Part shown: positions 26,517 through 38,037 of the stretch, one piece after another
How positions within the stretch are numbered: the first letter of the stretch is position 1
Layout: each line of letters starts with the position of its first letter
Source: Bacilli bacterium
GTDB taxonomy: Bacteria; Bacillota_I; Bacilli_A; RF39; UBA660
Length of the DNA stretch: 56,793 nucleotides
Assembly: GCA_029100965.1 (NCBI GenBank)
Contig: JAQXQC010000055.1
Coordinates: forward strand, 1 to 56,793
Direction of reading: 5' to 3'
Made by a program: the position numbers and the translations under genes
The notes under the pieces: model-generated
Database searches by the model: none
What the model was told of the DNA's origin: nothing
The model's input: the letters and a program-made list of their open reading frames with translations, nothing else

Positions 26517-27503
26517 ATGGTAAAAAAAATTTATAATTTATTATTTAAAAGAAAAAATTATAAATTTATTATTGGAATATTTCTAGGAATATTTTTTTCT
26601 ATAGTAGGAGTATATGCTGCTAGTAAATATACTTCTAAGAGTGTATATTATAATAATGAAAATAGTAGTTTATCTAGTGATGATGTACAGGGAGCTATTG
26701 ATGAGTTATCAGAGAAAGCAAAGAATCTTTCTAGTAGTGGATGTCCATCTGGTTATGCTTGTTTAGAGAAAAAAACTACTTTAGCGTTAGGAGATTATGT
26801 TAAGATGACACCAACTAAATCTTCTTATACAACAGATAAATCTAAAACAGGATATACAAGTACACAAACCATTAAACCTCAAGAATTAAATTTATGGCGA
26901 GTGATTAAAATTAATAGTGATGGAACAGTAGAGATGATTAGTGAACATGTATCTAGTACAGCAATATACTTTGGAGGAAAAACAGGGTACTTAAATTTAG
27001 TAGGCTATTTAAATGTACTTGCTAGTCAGTATGAAAATAGTACTTACACAAAAGGTTCTAGACATTTTGGTTATAATGGACAAACAGAATATATTACTGA
27101 TACAACAAAATTTGTTAATCCTGCACCATGGACTAGTTCAACTGGAAGTAGTACAGTAGAAAGGCAAGGAGGAGGAGATACTTTATATACTACAGACTAT
27201 AATTTAGTTTATACAGTGTTAGGAACTAGAGTGGCGACCAAACCAGGAAGCGCCGCTGGTTCATATTATTGGATGGCCTCACGTTACTATGGCTATTCGT
27301 CATCTACTAGCTATTACTGGCGCGGTCGTAGCGTGAGCACCTCGGGGTCGAATAGCAACTACAGCTTGTATCGCTATTACAGTTCAAGTTTCAACGCGGA
27401 CTACAATAGTAATTCCTTTCGCCCAATAGTGGTTCTGAAGTCAGGCCTCAAATACTATGGAGTCGGGACAGAGGATTATCCAATGGAAATATCAGTAAGT
27501 TAG
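26517..27503 (+). CDS. DGR variable protein 1: N-terminally anchored or secreted protein with a C-terminal variable region (probable C-type-lectin-like fold)
   Basis: An N-terminal hydrophobic anchor (FIIGIFLGIFFSIVGVYAA). The C-terminal 47 codons (VR1) align with the TR and differ from it at adenines. It is a paralogue of the 29571 and 36649 genes. Confidence 0.85.
   Translation: MVKKIYNLLFKRKNYKFIIGIFLGIFFSIVGVYAASKYTSKSVYYNNENSSLSSDDVQGAIDELSEKAKNLSSSGCPSGYACLEKKTTLALGDYVKMTPTKSSYTTDKSKTGYTSTQTIKPQELNLWRVIKINSDGTVEMISEHVSSTAIYFGGKTGYLNLVGYLNVLASQYENSTYTKGSRHFGYNGQTEYITDTTKFVNPAPWTSSTGSSTVERQGGGDTLYTTDYNLVYTVLGTRVATKPGSAAGSYYWMASRYYGYSSSTSYYWRGRSVSTSGSNSNYSLYRYYSSSFNADYNSNSFRPIVVLKSGLKYYGVGTEDYPMEISVS
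27285..27425 (+). repeat. DGR variable repeat VR1
   Basis: A 141-nt ungapped match to TR 28352-28492. I count 20 mismatches, 17 of them at TR adenines, and all 15 mismatches from codon 6 onward are at adenines. Confidence 0.9.
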
Positions 27504-27514
27504 GAAGTGTAGAA

Positions 27515-27547
27515 CCTCGGAGGACAGCCTAAGGGTGTTCACCGAGG
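27515..27547 (+). other. Conserved GC-rich hairpin just after the target-1 stop codon (copy 1 of 2)
   Basis: The fold is cctcgg-a-ggaca-g-cc-taa-gg-g-tgttc-a-ccgagg. A near-identical copy follows target 2. Confidence 0.6.
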
Positions 27548-27575: not shown

Positions 27576-27998
27576 GTGGCAGTCATTCATATGGTGAATA
27601 ATTTGAAAGAATTATTTCCTGATTATGTTTTATTATTAAAAATTGGTACTTTTTATGAGTGTTATTGTGATGATGCTAATATTGTTTCTTATTTATTTTC
27701 TTACAAAAGAAAAACTCTATCTAGTGGGGATAAGGTATGTGGATTTCCTCTTGTTTCTTATCATAAGGTAATCTCTAATTTAGAGAATAGAAATATTAAT
27801 TATATTTCTATTGATAAAACACATAATTATGAAGAAATAGATAAGGTTAATTATAAGAAAAAGAATCAATATCATGTGATTTTGGATAAAGCAAATTATT
27901 ATATCAATAATTTAGAGAGAATTGATAAGATTAAAAATTTTCTTTTAAAAGATAATTCTAAAATAGATGAGATAGAGAGATTGTTATATGAAAGATAA
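27576..27998 (+). CDS. Standalone MutS-domain-I-like protein (DGR accessory ORF, MSL-type)
   Basis: LKELFPDYVLLLKIGTFYECYCDDANIVS...CGFPLVSYHKVISNLENRNINYISID parallels the E. coli MutS N-terminus ([21 protein letters not shown]...[16 protein letters not shown]). This includes the F-x-E mismatch-contact motif (FYE, nt 27651-27659). The start is GTG with an AAGAAGG RBS. Confidence 0.7.
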   Translation: MAVIHMVNNLKELFPDYVLLLKIGTFYECYCDDANIVSYLFSYKRKTLSSGDKVCGFPLVSYHKVISNLENRNINYISIDKTHNYEEIDKVNYKKKNQYHVILDKANYYINNLERIDKIKNFLLKDNSKIDEIERLLYER

Positions 27999-28332
27999 AT
28001 TTTATGTTACTCGTTTAATTAAAGAATTAATTCATAGTTTTCATCAATATTTAACCAATTTTCCTCATAAGGAAATTGAGATAAAAAGAGAGATTATGTC
28101 TACTTCTTATCAAATGTTAAAAATTGCTTATGAAGCAAATACAACTTTTGATTTGAAAAAAAGAGTAGATATTCAAGATAAGATAATTTCTTATATTAAA
28201 TATTTGGATTATTTGGTTAATGTTTGCTATGATAAGCAAATTATTAATTCAAAGAGATATTTGAAATTTGGTGAGAATTTAGATTATTTATTAAAATATG
28301 TAATTGGATGGCGAAAGTCATCTAGGGCTTAG
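27988..28332 (+). CDS. avd: DGR accessory variability determinant (Avd, four-helix-bundle protein)
   Basis: A 114-aa, helical, basic protein located immediately upstream of the TR. The FP-HKE..IKREI...YEAN...KR....I...I..L..L pattern is typical of the Avd / 23S-IVS four-helix-bundle family. Confidence 0.75.
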   Translation: MKDKFYVTRLIKELIHSFHQYLTNFPHKEIEIKREIMSTSYQMLKIAYEANTTFDLKKRVDIQDKIISYIKYLDYLVNVCYDKQIINSKRYLKFGENLDYLLKYVIGWRKSSRA

Positions 28333-28351: not shown

Positions 28352-28492
28352 AATTATGACCATTCTTCATCTACTAACTATAACTGGAACGGTCGTAACG
28401 TGAACACCTCGGGGACGAATAGCAACAACAACTTGTATAACTATAACAGTTCAAGTTTCAACACGAACAACAATAGTAATTCCTTTCGCCCA
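28352..28492 (+). repeat. DGR template repeat (TR)
   Basis: A non-coding segment between avd and the RT. Read in the VR frame it gives NYDHSSSTNYNWNGRNVNTSGTNSNNNLYNYNSSSFNTNNNSNSFRP, with 17 AAY codons out of 47. It matches VR1, VR2 and VR3. Confidence 0.9.
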
Positions 28493-28627: not shown

Positions 28628-29574
28628 ATGAAAAGGAAAAATAATTTATATTCAAATGTATATAAATTTGATCATATAGAGAAGTGTTTTGATGAGATTT
28701 GTAGAAATACAAAGAATAAAAATAAAGTAAGTCAATTTAAAGAATTTAAGGCAATATATATTAGCCGAGTTTATCATGAATTAAAAAATAAAACTTATCA
28801 AGTAGGAAGTTTTCATGTATTTTATCTTTATGATCTAAAAAGAGAAGGATAGTTAGTCAAAATATGTATGATAAGTTAGTGAATCATTTGGTTAGTAGGT
28901 ATATTTTATATGATGCTTTAATTCCTTGTTTGATTGATTCTAATTGTGCATCAAGACCAAATAAGGGAGTAAGTTATGCTTTAAAGTTATATTATCAATA
29001 TCGAAGAGTATTGGATAAAAAATATTCTTATTATTATATTTTAAAATGTGATATTAAGTCTTATTTTGCTAGTATTGATATTGAAATATTAAAGAATAAA
29101 TTAAGAAAAAAGATTAAAGATAAAGATGCTTTAACTATTATTTATCAGATATTAGATAGTGATACTACTCTTAGTATAGGATTTATGACTAGTCAAATAT
29201 TAGGAATATTTTATTTAAATGATTTAGATCATTATATAAAAGAAGAATTAAAAATAAAATATTATGTTAGATATCAAGATGATTTTTTATTATTACATTG
29301 GGATAAACAATATTTAAAATATTGTTTAGATAAGATAAAAGAGTTTTTAAAAAGAGGGAAATTAGAATTGAATGAGAAGACTAGAATTTATAAAAATACA
29401 AATAATATTATTTTTCTTGGGAGAAATAAATATAATAGAAGTTCTAAATATAGAAAACAATTTAGAAAATTAAAACATAAGAAGTATTTATATGATGTAG
29501 GAAAAATTCAATTAAACAGTTATTTAGCTAGTTATATTAATTATAGAAATATTAATGGAGGTTTGAGAAAATGA
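28628..29574 (+). CDS. DGR-type reverse transcriptase, interrupted by a -1 frameshift at an A5 run (28837-28841)
   Basis: RT motifs are present: KCDIKSYFASID, the IGFMTSQ DGR-specific (I/L/V)GxxxSQ signature, YVRYQDDFLLL (YxDD), and FLG. ORFs 28628-28852 and 28864-29574 join as ...FYLYDLK/KRRIVSQNMYDK if one A is added. Confidence 0.85.
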
Positions 29575-30521
29575 AAAAAAGTAAGGGTTATAATTATAAA
29601 TTATTAATGGGAGTGATTTTAGGAATACTTTTATCTGTGGTTGGTGTAAGGGCTGTTAGTTATCTTGGAAGTGGTTCAGAATTAGTTTACGATAATAGTA
29701 GTAGTGGACTTTCCTCTGTTAATGTTCAAAATGCTTTAGATGAAGTTTATAGTAAAATTTGTCCTGATAACTATGTATGTTTCAAGAAGAAAAGTACTTT
29801 AGCATTAGGAGATTATGTTCAGATGACACCAACTAAATCTTCTTATACAACAGATACTTCTAAAACAGGATATACAAGTACGCAAACTATTAATCCTCAA
29901 GAATTAAATCTATGGAGGGTGATTAAAATTAATGATGATGGAACGGTAGAGATGATTAGTGAGCATGTCTCTAGTACAGCGGTATATTTTCAAGGACAAA
30001 CAGGATATCAAAATTTAGTAGGCTATTTAAATGTTCTTGCTAGTCAGTATGAGAATAGTACTTATACGAAAGGTTCTAGATATTTTGGTTATAATGGACA
30101 AACAGAATATATTACGGATACATCAAAATTTGTTAATCCTGCACCATGGACTAGTTCAACCGGAAGTAGTACAGTAGAAAGTCAAGGAGGAGGAGATACT
30201 TTATATGCAACAGATTATAATTTAGTTAATACAGTGTTAGCGACTAAAGTGGCAACTAAACCTAACAGTGCATCTGGTTCAGATTATTGGATGGCTTCTC
30301 GTGACTATTATTATTCTTCATCTACTAGCTATGGCTGGTACGGTCGTAGTGTGGACGCCTCGGGGGCGAATAACATCATCTATTTGTATCGCTATAGCAG
30401 TTCAAGTTTCAGCACGGACAACGATAGTAATTCCCTTCGCCCAATAGTGGTTCTGAAGTCAGGACTCAAATACTATGGAGTTGGGACAGAAGACTATCCA
30501 ATGGAAATATCAGTAAGTTAG
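29571..30521 (+). CDS. DGR variable protein 2 (paralogue of target 1)
   Basis: Its ATG overlaps the RT stop codon (ATGA). It has an N-terminal anchor, a scaffold that by eye is about 90% nt-identical to target 1, and a C-terminal VR2. Confidence 0.85.
   Translation: MKKSKGYNYKLLMGVILGILLSVVGVRAVSYLGSGSELVYDNSSSGLSSVNVQNALDEVYSKICPDNYVCFKKKSTLALGDYVQMTPTKSSYTTDTSKTGYTSTQTINPQELNLWRVIKINDDGTVEMISEHVSSTAVYFQGQTGYQNLVGYLNVLASQYENSTYTKGSRYFGYNGQTEYITDTSKFVNPAPWTSSTGSSTVESQGGGDTLYATDYNLVNTVLATKVATKPNSASGSDYWMASRDYYYSSSTSYGWYGRSVDASGANNIIYLYRYSSSSFSTDNDSNSLRPIVVLKSGLKYYGVGTEDYPMEISVS
30303..30443 (+). repeat. DGR variable repeat VR2
   Basis: A 141-nt ungapped match to the TR. I count 26 mismatches, 18 of them at TR adenines. 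Confidence 0.85.
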
Positions 30522-35505: not shown

Positions 35506-36639
35506 ATGGAAAATATTTTAGAAGATCAAAGAATGATTTTATATCGTGGCTTTTTTAGTGGAGTGGATTATGAAGTTAGGGTAGATAAGAAGAGTGGAGT
35601 TGGGACAATTATTGTTCCTAGTGGTATTTTAAGTCATCCTAATTATAAAAGTCTTTATTTAAATTGTTATCGTAGGACACTTACTAATTTAACAACTTTA
35701 AAGAATATTGCTGTTTCTTTAGAACCAACAAATGAGTTAGAAAAAGAAAGATGTAAGGAATTAATGAAAACGTTACCATTAGATAGTGAGGTAGAGATTG
35801 TTTCAAAGAATAAGAAAGAAGTTAATATTGAGAACTATTTGAAAGCTAATATGATTACTAAGAATGATAATGGAAAAATGGTTACTTATTTTAAAAGAAA
35901 TGCTTCTCAAAATCAGAATGAATATGTTTTAGAGAATGTAAGTTATTTTGCTTTAGAAGAGGAATTGGAAAAATTATTTAGTGATGGAAGGATGAATTTT
36001 GAGGATAAATCTGTAGAAGAAATTGCAAATATGGTATTAGATCGTGTTAGTAATAATAAAAAACAATATTATTTTGAAAGTAAGCAACAACATGTTGCTA
36101 AAGATGATTATGAGAAGGCTAGTATGAATGCTACAAATCAAGATGATAAAGTAAATACAGAAATAGGAATTATTCAAAAAGATCCTAGTGAGAGAGTAAA
36201 TAATACTTATCAGGCTGTAGAAAGAGATAAAGGGCATTATACACTTGCTCATTCTAGTGTTAGTGAGGTAGAGTCTCAAAAAATAGAGGGACAGTCAGAA
36301 AGTGAACAATCTATTACAGAAGTAGAGAGTAGAGAAGAAGAAAAAGTATATTATATTGACTTAGTTACACAAGATATTTATGATGAAGAATACCAAAAAA
36401 TTGGTAATATGAAAGAAGGGTATCAAATTAATTTTGATAATAACCATTTAATGAAAAATGGAAAAGAAATTGGTAGTATAGGAGATTTTTCTTCTTTAGA
36501 AAATCAAATATCTAATCATAAAAATAATGTTAGGACATTAAAGAAGGATAATGAAGGAATTGTTGACTTTCAAACTTTCTTCTTGTTAATATTTATTATG
36601 AGTGTATTGATGGGAAGTTTATATTTCTTTTGCAGATAG
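35506..36639 (+). CDS. Hypothetical protein with a C-terminal TM anchor, immediately upstream of DGR target 3
   Basis: An ORF with no recognised motif. A 9-nt gap separates it from the next gene. Confidence 0.45.
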   Translation: MENILEDQRMILYRGFFSGVDYEVRVDKKSGVGTIIVPSGILSHPNYKSLYLNCYRRTLTNLTTLKNIAVSLEPTNELEKERCKELMKTLPLDSEVEIVSKNKKEVNIENYLKANMITKNDNGKMVTYFKRNASQNQNEYVLENVSYFALEEELEKLFSDGRMNFEDKSVEEIANMVLDRVSNNKKQYYFESKQQHVAKDDYEKASMNATNQDDKVNTEIGIIQKDPSERVNNTYQAVERDKGHYTLAHSSVSEVESQKIEGQSESEQSITEVESREEEKVYYIDLVTQDIYDEEYQKIGNMKEGYQINFDNNHLMKNGKEIGSIGDFSSLENQISNHKNNVRTLKKDNEGIVDFQTFFLLIFIMSVLMGSLYFFCR

Positions 36640-36648
36640 GAGGAAGAG

Positions 36649-38037
36649 ATGGACTCTAAAAAAAGATTAATTATTACTAGTGTTATATCTATTATTCTTG
36701 TATCTATTTTATTTATTGGGAGTACTTATTCCATTTTTACTTCTACTGATGTTGATCAAGAATCTAATGTATATCAAACGGGAAATTTGTCAATTCAGTT
36801 TGAAAATACAAATAATGTTGCTTTAGAAATTACTAAGCCAATGTCGGATCAAAAAGCAGTTTCTTTGACTCCATATCATCTTACGGTTACCAATAATGGT
36901 ACAGTTGCGTATAAATTTAATATTGTACTTAATCCAACAACAGCAACAGATGAAATTAATCATCAATATATTATGACTAAAGTAGGACAATTGGATAGTA
37001 AAAAATTTAGTGATTGTACAAATAATATTATTAAAGAAGGAGTTATTTTGTTGCCTAAAACAAGTGTTGATATTGATGTTCGTGTTTGGTTATCTGATAC
37101 TGTTCAAAATACAGAGGTTAATAAGAGTTTTAGTGCAAAATTATCTATAGATGGAGTTGGGGCTTATAGTAAGCATACAGAGGTGGATAATAGTGCGTTA
37201 GCATCTAATGATAAATTAGCTAGTCGATTTAGTTATGATAATTCTAAGTCTAATTTTGATTGTTCTGATGTACAGTGTGCGATTGATACTTTAGATAAAG
37301 CATTAGGAGGTAGTGATTTATTTTTAGGGGCATATGTTTCCATGACACCTAAAAAATCTTCTTATACAACAGATACTTCTAAAACAGGATATACGAGTAG
37401 TCAAACAATTAATCCTCAAGAATTAAATCTATGGAGGGTAATTAAAATTAATAGTGATGGAACGGTAGAGATGATTAGTGAGCATGTATCTAGTACAGAT
37501 GTATACTTTCGAGGAAAAACAGGGTACTTAAATTTAGTAGGATATTTAAATGTACTTGCTAGTCAATACGAGAATAGTACTTATACAAAAGGGTCTAGAC
37601 ATTTTGGGTATAATGGACAAACAGAATATATTACCGATACTTCCAAATTTACTTCTAGTGCTCCATGGACTTGTGGTACTGGAGGAAGTTGTAATCCAGT
37701 AGAAAGTCAAGGAGGAGGAGATTGGTTATATACAACAGATTATAATTTAGTTAAAGCGACTGAAGTGGTAACTAAACCTAACAGTGCATCTGGTTCATCT
37801 TATTGGATGGCTTCTCGTGACTATAGCTATTCTTCATCTACTAGCTATGGCTGGTACGGTCATAGTGTGGACGCCTCGGGGGCGAATAACCTCAACCATT
37901 TGTATGACTATGTCGGTTCAAGTTTCAGCACGAGCAGCAATAGTAAGTCCCTTCGCCCAATAGTGACTTTGAAGTCTGGACTTAAATATACAGGATCTGG
38001 AACTGCTGATGATCCATTTAAACCATCTACAAAGTAG
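36649..38037 (+). CDS. DGR variable protein 3: SipW-type signal peptide plus a TasA/camelysin-like N-terminal module, fused to the shared scaffold and VR3
   Basis: The N-terminus ...LFIGSTYSIFTSTDVDQESNVYQTGNLSIQF resembles TasA/CalY-class signal peptides and their mature N-termini. The C-terminal half is paralogous to targets 1 and 2 and ends in VR3. Confidence 0.8.
   Translation: MDSKKRLIITSVISIILVSILFIGSTYSIFTSTDVDQESNVYQTGNLSIQFENTNNVALEITKPMSDQKAVSLTPYHLTVTNNGTVAYKFNIVLNPTTATDEINHQYIMTKVGQLDSKKFSDCTNNIIKEGVILLPKTSVDIDVRVWLSDTVQNTEVNKSFSAKLSIDGVGAYSKHTEVDNSALASNDKLASRFSYDNSKSNFDCSDVQCAIDTLDKALGGSDLFLGAYVSMTPKKSSYTTDTSKTGYTSSQTINPQELNLWRVIKINSDGTVEMISEHVSSTDVYFRGKTGYLNLVGYLNVLASQYENSTYTKGSRHFGYNGQTEYITDTSKFTSSAPWTCGTGGSCNPVESQGGGDWLYTTDYNLVKATEVVTKPNSASGSSYWMASRDYSYSSSTSYGWYGHSVDASGANNLNHLYDYVGSSFSTSSNSKSLRPIVTLKSGLKYTGSGTADDPFKPSTK
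37819..37959 (+). repeat. DGR variable repeat VR3 (remote from the cassette)
   Basis: A 141-nt ungapped match to the TR. I count about 29 mismatches, about 20 of them at TR adenines. Confidence 0.85.

Follow-up and report, generated by a model that had tools for sequence, protein, structure and literature searches.

We analysed a 56,793-nt stretch of DNA from a Bacilli bacterium (assembly GCA_029100965.1, contig JAQXQC010000055.1; hereafter, the 56.8-kb window), which carries a diversity-generating retroelement (DGR) and three target genes, one of them far from the cassette. This remote gene, target 3, is an open reading frame (ORF) of 462 aa at positions 36649–38037 (+) in the ORF list, and its product matches exactly the NCBI entry MDD5827040.1, a 'hypothetical protein' whose source record is a metagenome-assembled genome (MAG) labelled 'Bacilli bacterium'. 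The gene starts 7.1 kb downstream of the end of the reverse transcriptase (RT) ORF (29574), and the interval contains cinA, nadK and genes for an HMA protein, an XRE-type regulator, an ATPase and a DUF308 membrane protein, followed by a 377-aa ORF. An earlier note on this DNA had picked out the ORF as a third target about 7 kb from the RT with unrelated genes between them, and the ORF list bears out this position.

The remote target and the cassette

Target 3 is built from several successive parts, all of which, like the cassette genes below, are read on the forward (+) strand. Its N-terminal module (N-module) opens with a leader (residues 1–28, 36649–36732) made up of MDSKKR, an 18-residue hydrophobic core and GSTYS, with putative cleavage after S28; the body that follows (residues 29–190, 36733–37218) is predicted to contain a putative N-terminal strand and then a seven-strand immunoglobulin (Ig)-like β-sandwich. 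The neck motif FSYDNSKSNFDCSDVQCAIDTLDKAL (37228–37305) comes next and is also present in the protein sequences of targets 1 and 2. The C-terminal DGR variable-protein domain (residues 224–462, 37318–38034) is paralogous to targets 1 and 2, with 75–81% amino acid identity in alignments and DNA repeat families D1–D3 in common. Towards its end lies the variable repeat VR3 (37820–37959; residues 391–437 of 462), whose differences from the template repeat (TR) are biased to adenines. The earlier note had described both a paralogous C-terminal half, which these identities uphold, and a distinct N-terminus, which is indeed unlike those of targets 1 and 2 and bears the LFIGSTYSIFTSTD motif.

In its general form, Y-[DN]-N-S-x-S..[LF]....[DN]-V-Q-x-A-[IL]-D, the neck motif recurs in the three targets (37228–37305, 26650–26720 and 29690–29760) and in stand-alone N-module proteins. 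No Pfam model matches it; its role could be, for example, oligomerisation.

The cassette comprises, in order, target 1 (26517–27503, with VR1 at 27286–27425); a small MutS_I-only protein of the MSL class of DGR accessory genes (27576–27998; PF01624, E 3.2e-9); the four-helix-bundle accessory protein Avd (27988–28332; PF22296 bAvd, E 2.3e-6, and NF033474), whose ORF is intact in this strain; the TR (28353–28492; repeat family D3, by alignment); the DGR RT (28628–29574; RVT_1, E 2.4e-13), which is split into ORFs of 74 aa and 236 aa; and target 2 (29571–30521, with VR2 at 30304–30443). Targets 1 and 2 have a plain transmembrane (TM) anchor before the same neck and variable domain. Wu et al. (PMC5758913) describe such a pairing of a MutS_I accessory gene and avd as the 'MSL' architecture D.

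The sole conserved neighbour of target 3 is the 377-aa gene immediately upstream (35506–36639, +), which ends 9 nt before it and encodes a protein whose central part is acidic and of low complexity and whose C-terminus forms a TM helix; Pfam has no matching family. This gene is kept directly upstream of target 3 in seven related loci (L006–L010, L024 and L025) and may be its functional partner. A scan for promoters, terminators and hairpins around target 3 gave nothing above the shuffled expectation.

VR3 and its template between strains and species

Over the 140-nt core that VR3 shares with the TR, 19 of the 50 adenine sites are changed, as against 9 of the 90 others (Fisher p = 1.3e-4), in agreement with the earlier claim that target 3 ends in a third adenine-variant copy of the TR. 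The other two repeats show the same pattern: VR1 differs from the TR at 16/50 adenine sites and 3/90 other sites, and VR2 at 17/50 and 8/90. Of the 50 TR adenines, 47 lie at codon position 1 or 2. The 3′ end shared by VR3 and the TR is TTCGCCCA, with two mismatches in VR3 over the last 15 nt. Four non-adenine differences (TR positions 28399, 28422, 28432 and 28484) are common to VR2 and VR3 and absent from VR1, which indicates that an older TR version served for the last writing of VR2 and VR3 and that VR1 was written later; target 1 is thus the most recently rewritten of the three.

Just past the target 1 stop codon, at 27515–27547, lies a GC-rich 16-nt inverted repeat (CCTCGGAGGACAGCCT / AGGGTGTTCACCGAGG) in a genome of 27% GC, with no counterpart at targets 2 and 3; a hairpin scan found no inverted repeat downstream of VR3. 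The repeat may represent a terminator or a hairpin for DGR target recognition, and it might account for VR1 being the last of the three to be rewritten.

When one genome per species was scanned, 13 related loci emerged, all from MAGs of uncultured gut Bacilli or Erysipelotrichaceae; a further locus, L025, was obtained separately through an RT look-up. The gene order (DGR)–cinA–nadK–…–377-aa gene–target 3–HD protein is kept in L006–L009 and L025. The TR of L009 is 86% identical to that of the window, and the L009 VR3 differs from it at 20 of 48 adenine sites and 13 of 92 others. The two TRs differ at 16 non-adenine sites, and at these the VR3 of either genome favours its own TR (12:3 in the window and 11:5 in L009); VR3 has thus changed together with the local TR across species.

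The L025 strain is ~95–96% identical to the window and has an intact RT of 315 aa. Its VR3–TR differences are again biased to adenines. The window TR and the L025 TR (TR25) are separated by six non-adenine substitutions; at four of the six, each VR3 has the base of its own TR, and the L025 VR3 carries the TR25 state at six of six. The L025 VR3 does not have a 3-nt deletion that is found in TR25 and in the VR2 of that strain, and is therefore not a copy of that VR2. The deletion (AAC; L025 9707–9883 and 11686–11823) is common to TR25 and VR2 and missing from VR1 and VR3, a pattern that points to the relative order of the last homing events into the three L025 targets.

Between the target 3 genes of the window and L025, VR3 differs at 39 of 140 bases, the N-module at 11 of 570 and the tail at 2 of 78. 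The flanks of VR3 diverge by 2–3%, and strain hypervariability is confined to VR3; the neck and framework, which differ at 82 of 610 bases, are taken up below. The divergence of VR3, set against that of the N-module, argues that trans retrohoming into the remote target is real and recent. Taken together, the natural strain comparisons provide strong evidence that the non-adjacent target 3, which the earlier note had proposed as diversified in trans, has recently been rewritten in this way: in three genomes VR3 tracks the local TR, and its sequence is hypervariable from strain to strain.

In the L006-type species, the 10 kb on either side of target 3 yielded no Avd or RT, and VR3 is almost invariant among eleven 460-aa variants from different samples, as would be expected if the RT drives the variation. 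At L006 (4128–5350) and L007 (3703–4938), from two related species, a target-1-like gene and a target 2 remnant of 73 codons have no MSL–Avd–TR–RT core between them; target 3, at its remote position, is still full-length at both loci, with an almost invariant VR. A non-adjacent target that appears to be rewritten in trans, and that is frozen where the cassette is not found near it (L006-type species) or is broken (this strain), would offer a natural on/off series for the study of DGR target choice and decay.

A VR far from its cassette is no novelty: 45 of 372 DGRs have non-adjacent targets (PMC5758913), and the MSL DGRs with remote targets of architecture D described there, in Treponema denticola and Legionella, have the same MSL–avd–TR–RT core with several targets, the same single target set apart by unrelated genes and, towards the 3′ end of the ORF, the same adenine differences between TR and VR. 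The element in the window differs from them in that the N-module of its remote target lies outside the described target architectures, the variable domain has no Pfam match and the RT is frameshifted.

The N-terminal module and its likeness to TasA

An exhaustive profile search with the N-module returned 2,503 representatives of clusters at 50% identity at E ≤ 1e-3, and 549 at E ≤ 1e-10. Where the hydrophobic core ends, a G-S-T-Y-S-[IL]-F motif is near-invariant in a family that is otherwise 25–60% identical, and leader residues G24, T26, Y27 and S28 are at least 90% conserved. The module stands at the N-terminus of every listed family protein, in chains of 99 to 1,129 aa, and none of the 76 matches in a second search had a name or a Pfam domain for the N-module region. 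The domains that follow it include Flg_new, DUF285, BspA-type LRR, Laminin_G_3, DUF6273, ALK_LTK_GRD and H_lectin, a typical surface and adhesin repertoire of the kind expected for a surface-display module. The idea that target 3 is a one-off architecture does not survive this census: several species carry this fusion, and many other adhesin domains are found behind the N-module. If the module is an export, anchoring or polymerisation device, this large unannotated family (~2,500 clusters), standing before many adhesin-type domains in uncultured gut Bacilli, would explain the display of many surface proteins in poorly known gut bacteria.

We compared the module with the TasA/CalY/camelysin family (PF12389; TIGR04088). 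Residues 28–261 of the Bacillus subtilis TasA query were verified against PDB entries 8AUR and 5OF1, and all members of the TasA family collected from it are annotated PF12389. An hhalign comparison of alignments of 45 TasA-family and 86 N-module sequences gave a probability of 94.9% (P 4e-8) over 81 columns, matching N-module residues 2–89 to TasA 1–81, whereas a reversed control and five shuffled controls gave P values of 0.29–0.75. Without both signal regions the probability was 43% (P 2.5e-4). Four separately aligned segments were each collinear with TasA (residues 1–30, P 2e-5; 31–92, P 2.6e-5; 31–60, P 1.4e-3; 61–92, P 1.1e-3), and residues 93–190 gave no signal against it (P 0.05, not collinear).

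The alignment places GSTYS|IFTS on TasA GGTWA|AFND, the SipW cleavage site (A27|A28), and the TasA chain in the 8AUR fibre structure begins at A28. N-module residues F30, Y42, G45 and L47 are aligned with TasA F29, F39, G42 and L44, and residues 31–92 align with TasA from the donor strand through the 'FxxxNxGsL' strand. In TasA, residues 28–38 form the donor strand, 39–47 the linker and 48–61 the self-complementing strand, with F29, I32 and F39 making hydrophobic contacts (PMC9674648). On this alignment, the part shared by the N-module and TasA would be the cleavage and strand-exchange apparatus with one further strand, up to ~residue 81; for the remainder of the module, no relation to TasA is detectable.

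Both families thus have a G-x-T-aromatic-small|x-F leader in register with the TasA cleavage site, an N.[YF]..G.L strand and an L.N..P......F.[IL].N.G.[LV] strand. They differ in the size of the body (~150 aa here versus ~210 aa in TasA), in the loss of similarity after residue 92, in the predicted fold of the N-module, which retrieves neither 5OF1 nor 8AUR, and in the large C-terminal cargo and the missing sipW or tapA neighbour of the N-module genes. Among relatives of the module, weak PF12389 matches were found in 8 of 21 and in 6 of 95 (best E 9.4e-5), TIGR04088 matches in 3 of 21 (best E 7.9e-4) and matches to the TasA model NF046066 in 2 of 21; the Ig-type models DUF7507 and DUF11 match relatives as often as PF12389. 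Ten candidates were scanned for the best PF12389-scoring relative, and that relative was not among them.

A first AlphaFold2 model (residues 1–225, 26 sequences) had a pLDDT of 73. The second, of residues 24–190 with 59 sequences down to 24% identity, reached a pLDDT of 82.4 and a pTM of 0.77, and shows a compact sandwich of about seven strands with pLDDT 86–95 over residues 64–173; only residues 24–42 fall below 50. Foldseek found no PDB match to this model at E ≤ 1e-3. Its top matches, with TM-scores of 0.3–0.5, were the CEP192 SPD-2 domain, MSP domains, PapA, FimF/G and the PapG pilin domain, and the TasA-like archaeal bundling pilin 7ueg reached E 0.04 only. The first model, which includes the TM helix, had one PDB match at 7.7e-4, to the PapG pilin domain (TM 0.26–0.39). 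TasA itself (5OF1, 8AUR) was absent from the top 50 PDB fold matches of both models, a Foldseek search of one model against BFVD returned nothing, and a PDB sequence search with the N-module profile gave nothing useful.

The models therefore suggest a generic Ig-like sandwich, and membership of the TasA fold is not supported; what the alignments support is a distant, partial relationship to TasA that would be limited to the leader and the first strands. The earlier note had gone further on two counts. Its SipW-class-like signal stands as a resemblance, with GSTYS|IF in register with TasA GGTWA|AF, and fails on the TIGR04088 score given below. Its TasA/camelysin module has support for residues 1–92 only; residues 93–190 and the predicted fold lend it none.

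The genomic context offers no fibre operon. The sipW-like signal peptidase that the earlier note had suggested looking for was found neither in the window nor at 20 related loci: the S26 catalytic-serine motif is absent from all ORFs of the window and of 18 related loci, and the precomputed Pfam lists of two further contexts contain no signal peptidase. The sole Peptidase_S24 match in this search is LexA. No tapA or sipW gene neighbours the N-module genes of the window and the related loci, and a search for a second N-module gene found one gene per locus, with no shaft-plus-tip operon.

Readings of the protein and history of the locus

We regard it as probable that target 3 encodes a three-part exported surface protein with a DGR-rewritten tip. 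The first part would be the N-module of a large unannotated gut-Bacilli family, consisting of a TasA-type leader, a short N-terminal strand segment and an Ig-like β-sandwich; the second, the short neck motif (YDNSxS...VQxAID) common to the two cassette-adjacent targets; and the third, a C-terminal ligand-binding domain whose final ~47 codons (VR3) would be rewritten by the MSL–Avd–TR–RT DGR 7 kb upstream. By analogy with characterised DGRs, from which we infer the homing mechanism itself, TR RNA would be reverse-transcribed with adenine-specific errors and the cDNA would take the place of VR3 in trans, with the conserved 3′ terminus of the repeat (..TTCGCCCA) as its guide. A surface location, cleavage after S28 and a lectin-like fold of the variable domain are likewise the presumed features of such a protein.

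Several observations weigh against this reading. The variable domain of target 3 has no Pfam match and no PDB sequence match in profile searches, and a Pfam scan did not detect FGE-sulfatase or DUF1566 in it. VR3 has 9 non-adenine mismatches to the TR (VR1 has 3), two of them within the last 15 nt of homology. The two curated profiles for the N-module proposed by the earlier note both scored below their cut-offs: PF12389 (Peptidase_M73) matches target 3 at E 0.0064 with 16.8 bits against a cut-off of 22.5, over residues 6–86 and profile positions 4–76 of 196 only, and TIGR04088 gives the leader 17.1 bits against 19. The DGR in this strain is, in addition, most likely off, with a frameshifted RT and a VR3 that is fixed relative to a near-identical strain. 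Compared with the intact RTs of L009 and L025, the RT has a 1-nt deletion (one C) at ~28838, just upstream of RT motif 1 (YDPKKRRIV), which turns GATCCTAAAAAG into GATCTAAAAAG. Both the identical 74-aa RT product and a second 74-aa variant are found in other assemblies, so that an assembly error is unlikely and the frameshift allele is probably real; intact 315-aa alleles fall in the same 90% cluster as the window RT. In L023 and L024, which are 97.4% identical to the window, VR3 differs at 3 bases, with one more just 5′ of the core, and all of these differences fall at TR-adenine sites. Because fresh homing would re-randomise the ~19 substituted adenine sites, VR3 appears to be static in the sub-lineage formed by the window, L023 and L024.

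It is possible, if doubtful, that the leader is an ordinary uncleaved signal anchor or a general signal peptidase (SPase) signal followed by a generic Ig-like stalk, which would make target 3 a membrane-tethered adhesin like targets 1 and 2. The resemblance to TasA would then be convergent or compositional, a view to which we give a minority weight. The curated scores, every one of them below threshold, are compatible with it, as are the long hydrophobic core of 18 residues, the fall in hhalign probability to 43% without the signal region and the plain TM anchor that precedes the same neck and variable domain in targets 1 and 2. DUF7507, DUF11 and CARDB-like Ig models match the same NxGxV strand as often as PF12389, and the fold search retrieves generic sandwiches, among them MSP and CEP192. 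A plain anchor, however, would not be expected to carry a near-invariant G-S-T-Y-S-[IL]-F at the end of its core, and three separate segments of the module each reach the collinear TasA position with P from 1e-3 to 2e-5.

It seems unlikely that the N-module is a genuine subunit of a TasA-like fibre or pilus, with residues ~29–47 acting as a donor strand after cleavage at S28|I29. The strand would have to enter the sandwich of a neighbouring N-module and the DGR-diversified lectin domains would sit on the polymer or at its tip, an arrangement that we also judge improbable. It would fit the extent of the TasA-aligned part, which runs through signal peptide, donor strand, linker, self-complementing strand and the next strand FQFENNGSLAIK (PMC9674648), and the four matched residues F30, Y42, G45 and L47. 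In the monomer model, low confidence is limited to residues 24–42, the best (weak) fold matches include the donor-strand pilins PapA, FimF/G and the PapG pilin domain as well as the archaeal bundling pilin 7ueg, and stand-alone N-module proteins of 184–222 aa could serve as shaft subunits. Against it stand a fold search with no match at E ≤ 1e-3 and TasA outside the top 50, residues 93–190 that have no TasA homology, and loci with a single N-module gene and no sipW or tapA neighbour; many members, moreover, would place 300–900 aa of cargo on every subunit, unlike known TasA fibres. There is accordingly a low probability that the module represents a minimal and hitherto unrecognised branch of fibre proteins with TasA-type donor-strand exchange, one that would be widespread among uncultured gut Bacilli.

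The fibre hypothesis is nonetheless the reading most worth testing. In that case a sortase-independent fibre of a Gram-positive host would bear DGR-hypervariable lectin domains, either along it or at its tip, and would supply a Firmicute counterpart to the adhesins of Bacteroides type V pili, whose adhesive components are described as DGR-diversified (bioRxiv 10.1101/2024.11.15.621889). Both systems have a gut-bacterial DGR diversifying a surface adhesin joined to a pilin-like module, and they differ in phylum, pilus system and domain order, polymerisation being only hypothesised for target 3. The chaperone–usher adhesins FimH and PapG likewise join an Ig-like pilin-type domain to a ligand-binding domain, and the top fold matches of the N-module include the PapG pilin domain, PapA and FimF/G, at weak scores (E 3e-3 to 3e-2, TM 0.3–0.45). 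Their domain order is reversed relative to target 3, whose host is Gram-positive and has no usher or chaperone. Our literature search found no paper linking DGRs with TasA.

The framework of target 3 before VR3 (window 37220–37820; gene positions 571–1171) diverges by 8.7–13.4% between strains, versus 1.4–1.9% in the N-module, and contains T2-like tracts, for example NTVLATKV in protein P0339 where the window has a 3-codon gap; this divergence and these tracts point to gene conversion among the three targets. That VR3 is no retrohoming target at all, its likeness to the TR being inherited from a target 2 duplication and kept by gene conversion, is very improbable: the mosaic framework and the four non-adenine TR differences common to VR2 and VR3 would agree with it, but the differences are adenine-biased in every genome compared, the L025 VR3 has TR25-specific bases yet is a copy of neither VR1 nor VR2 of that strain, and T3-specific lineage markers such as the C..G..C pair are retained in all orthologues.

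The closest database matches to target 3 are proteins of 215–223 aa that end just after the DVQCAID of the neck motif. A recent fusion, as these short matches might suggest, was considered and rejected, since syntenic orthologues in four other genomes are full-length; orthologues of 460–465 aa are present at L006, L007, L009, L023/L024 and L025. The short forms of target 3 appear to be derived, L005 being a nonsense allele and L008 a deletion. In L005 (97.7% DNA identity), a TTA-to-TGA change lies exactly at the junction of the N-module with the neck and variable domain (L005 1400–1568; window 37215–37385), with an additional 3-nt deletion just downstream, giving a 223-aa product; the variable domain is still readable beyond the nonsense codon and is left untranslated. 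In L008, the C-terminal domain of target 3 is deleted. Stand-alone N-module proteins measure 184–222 aa, and the homologues of 215–222 aa stop just past the neck motif; P0004 is a stand-alone paralogue encoded at a different locus.

Lesions in the cassette are found at other loci as well. L001 (2797–3754) has an RT frameshift near YxDD, L008 (1548–3450) has frameshifts in RT and MSL, and Avd is cut down to 78 aa in L025 (9473–9709). This suggests that DGR components have been inactivated repeatedly, through recurrent decay or on/off switching. Elsewhere in the window, on the reverse (−) strand at 299–2815, an 838-aa secreted protein has, by eye, numerous ricin-type (QxW) lectin repeats and, after them, a lysozyme-like domain at its C-terminus.

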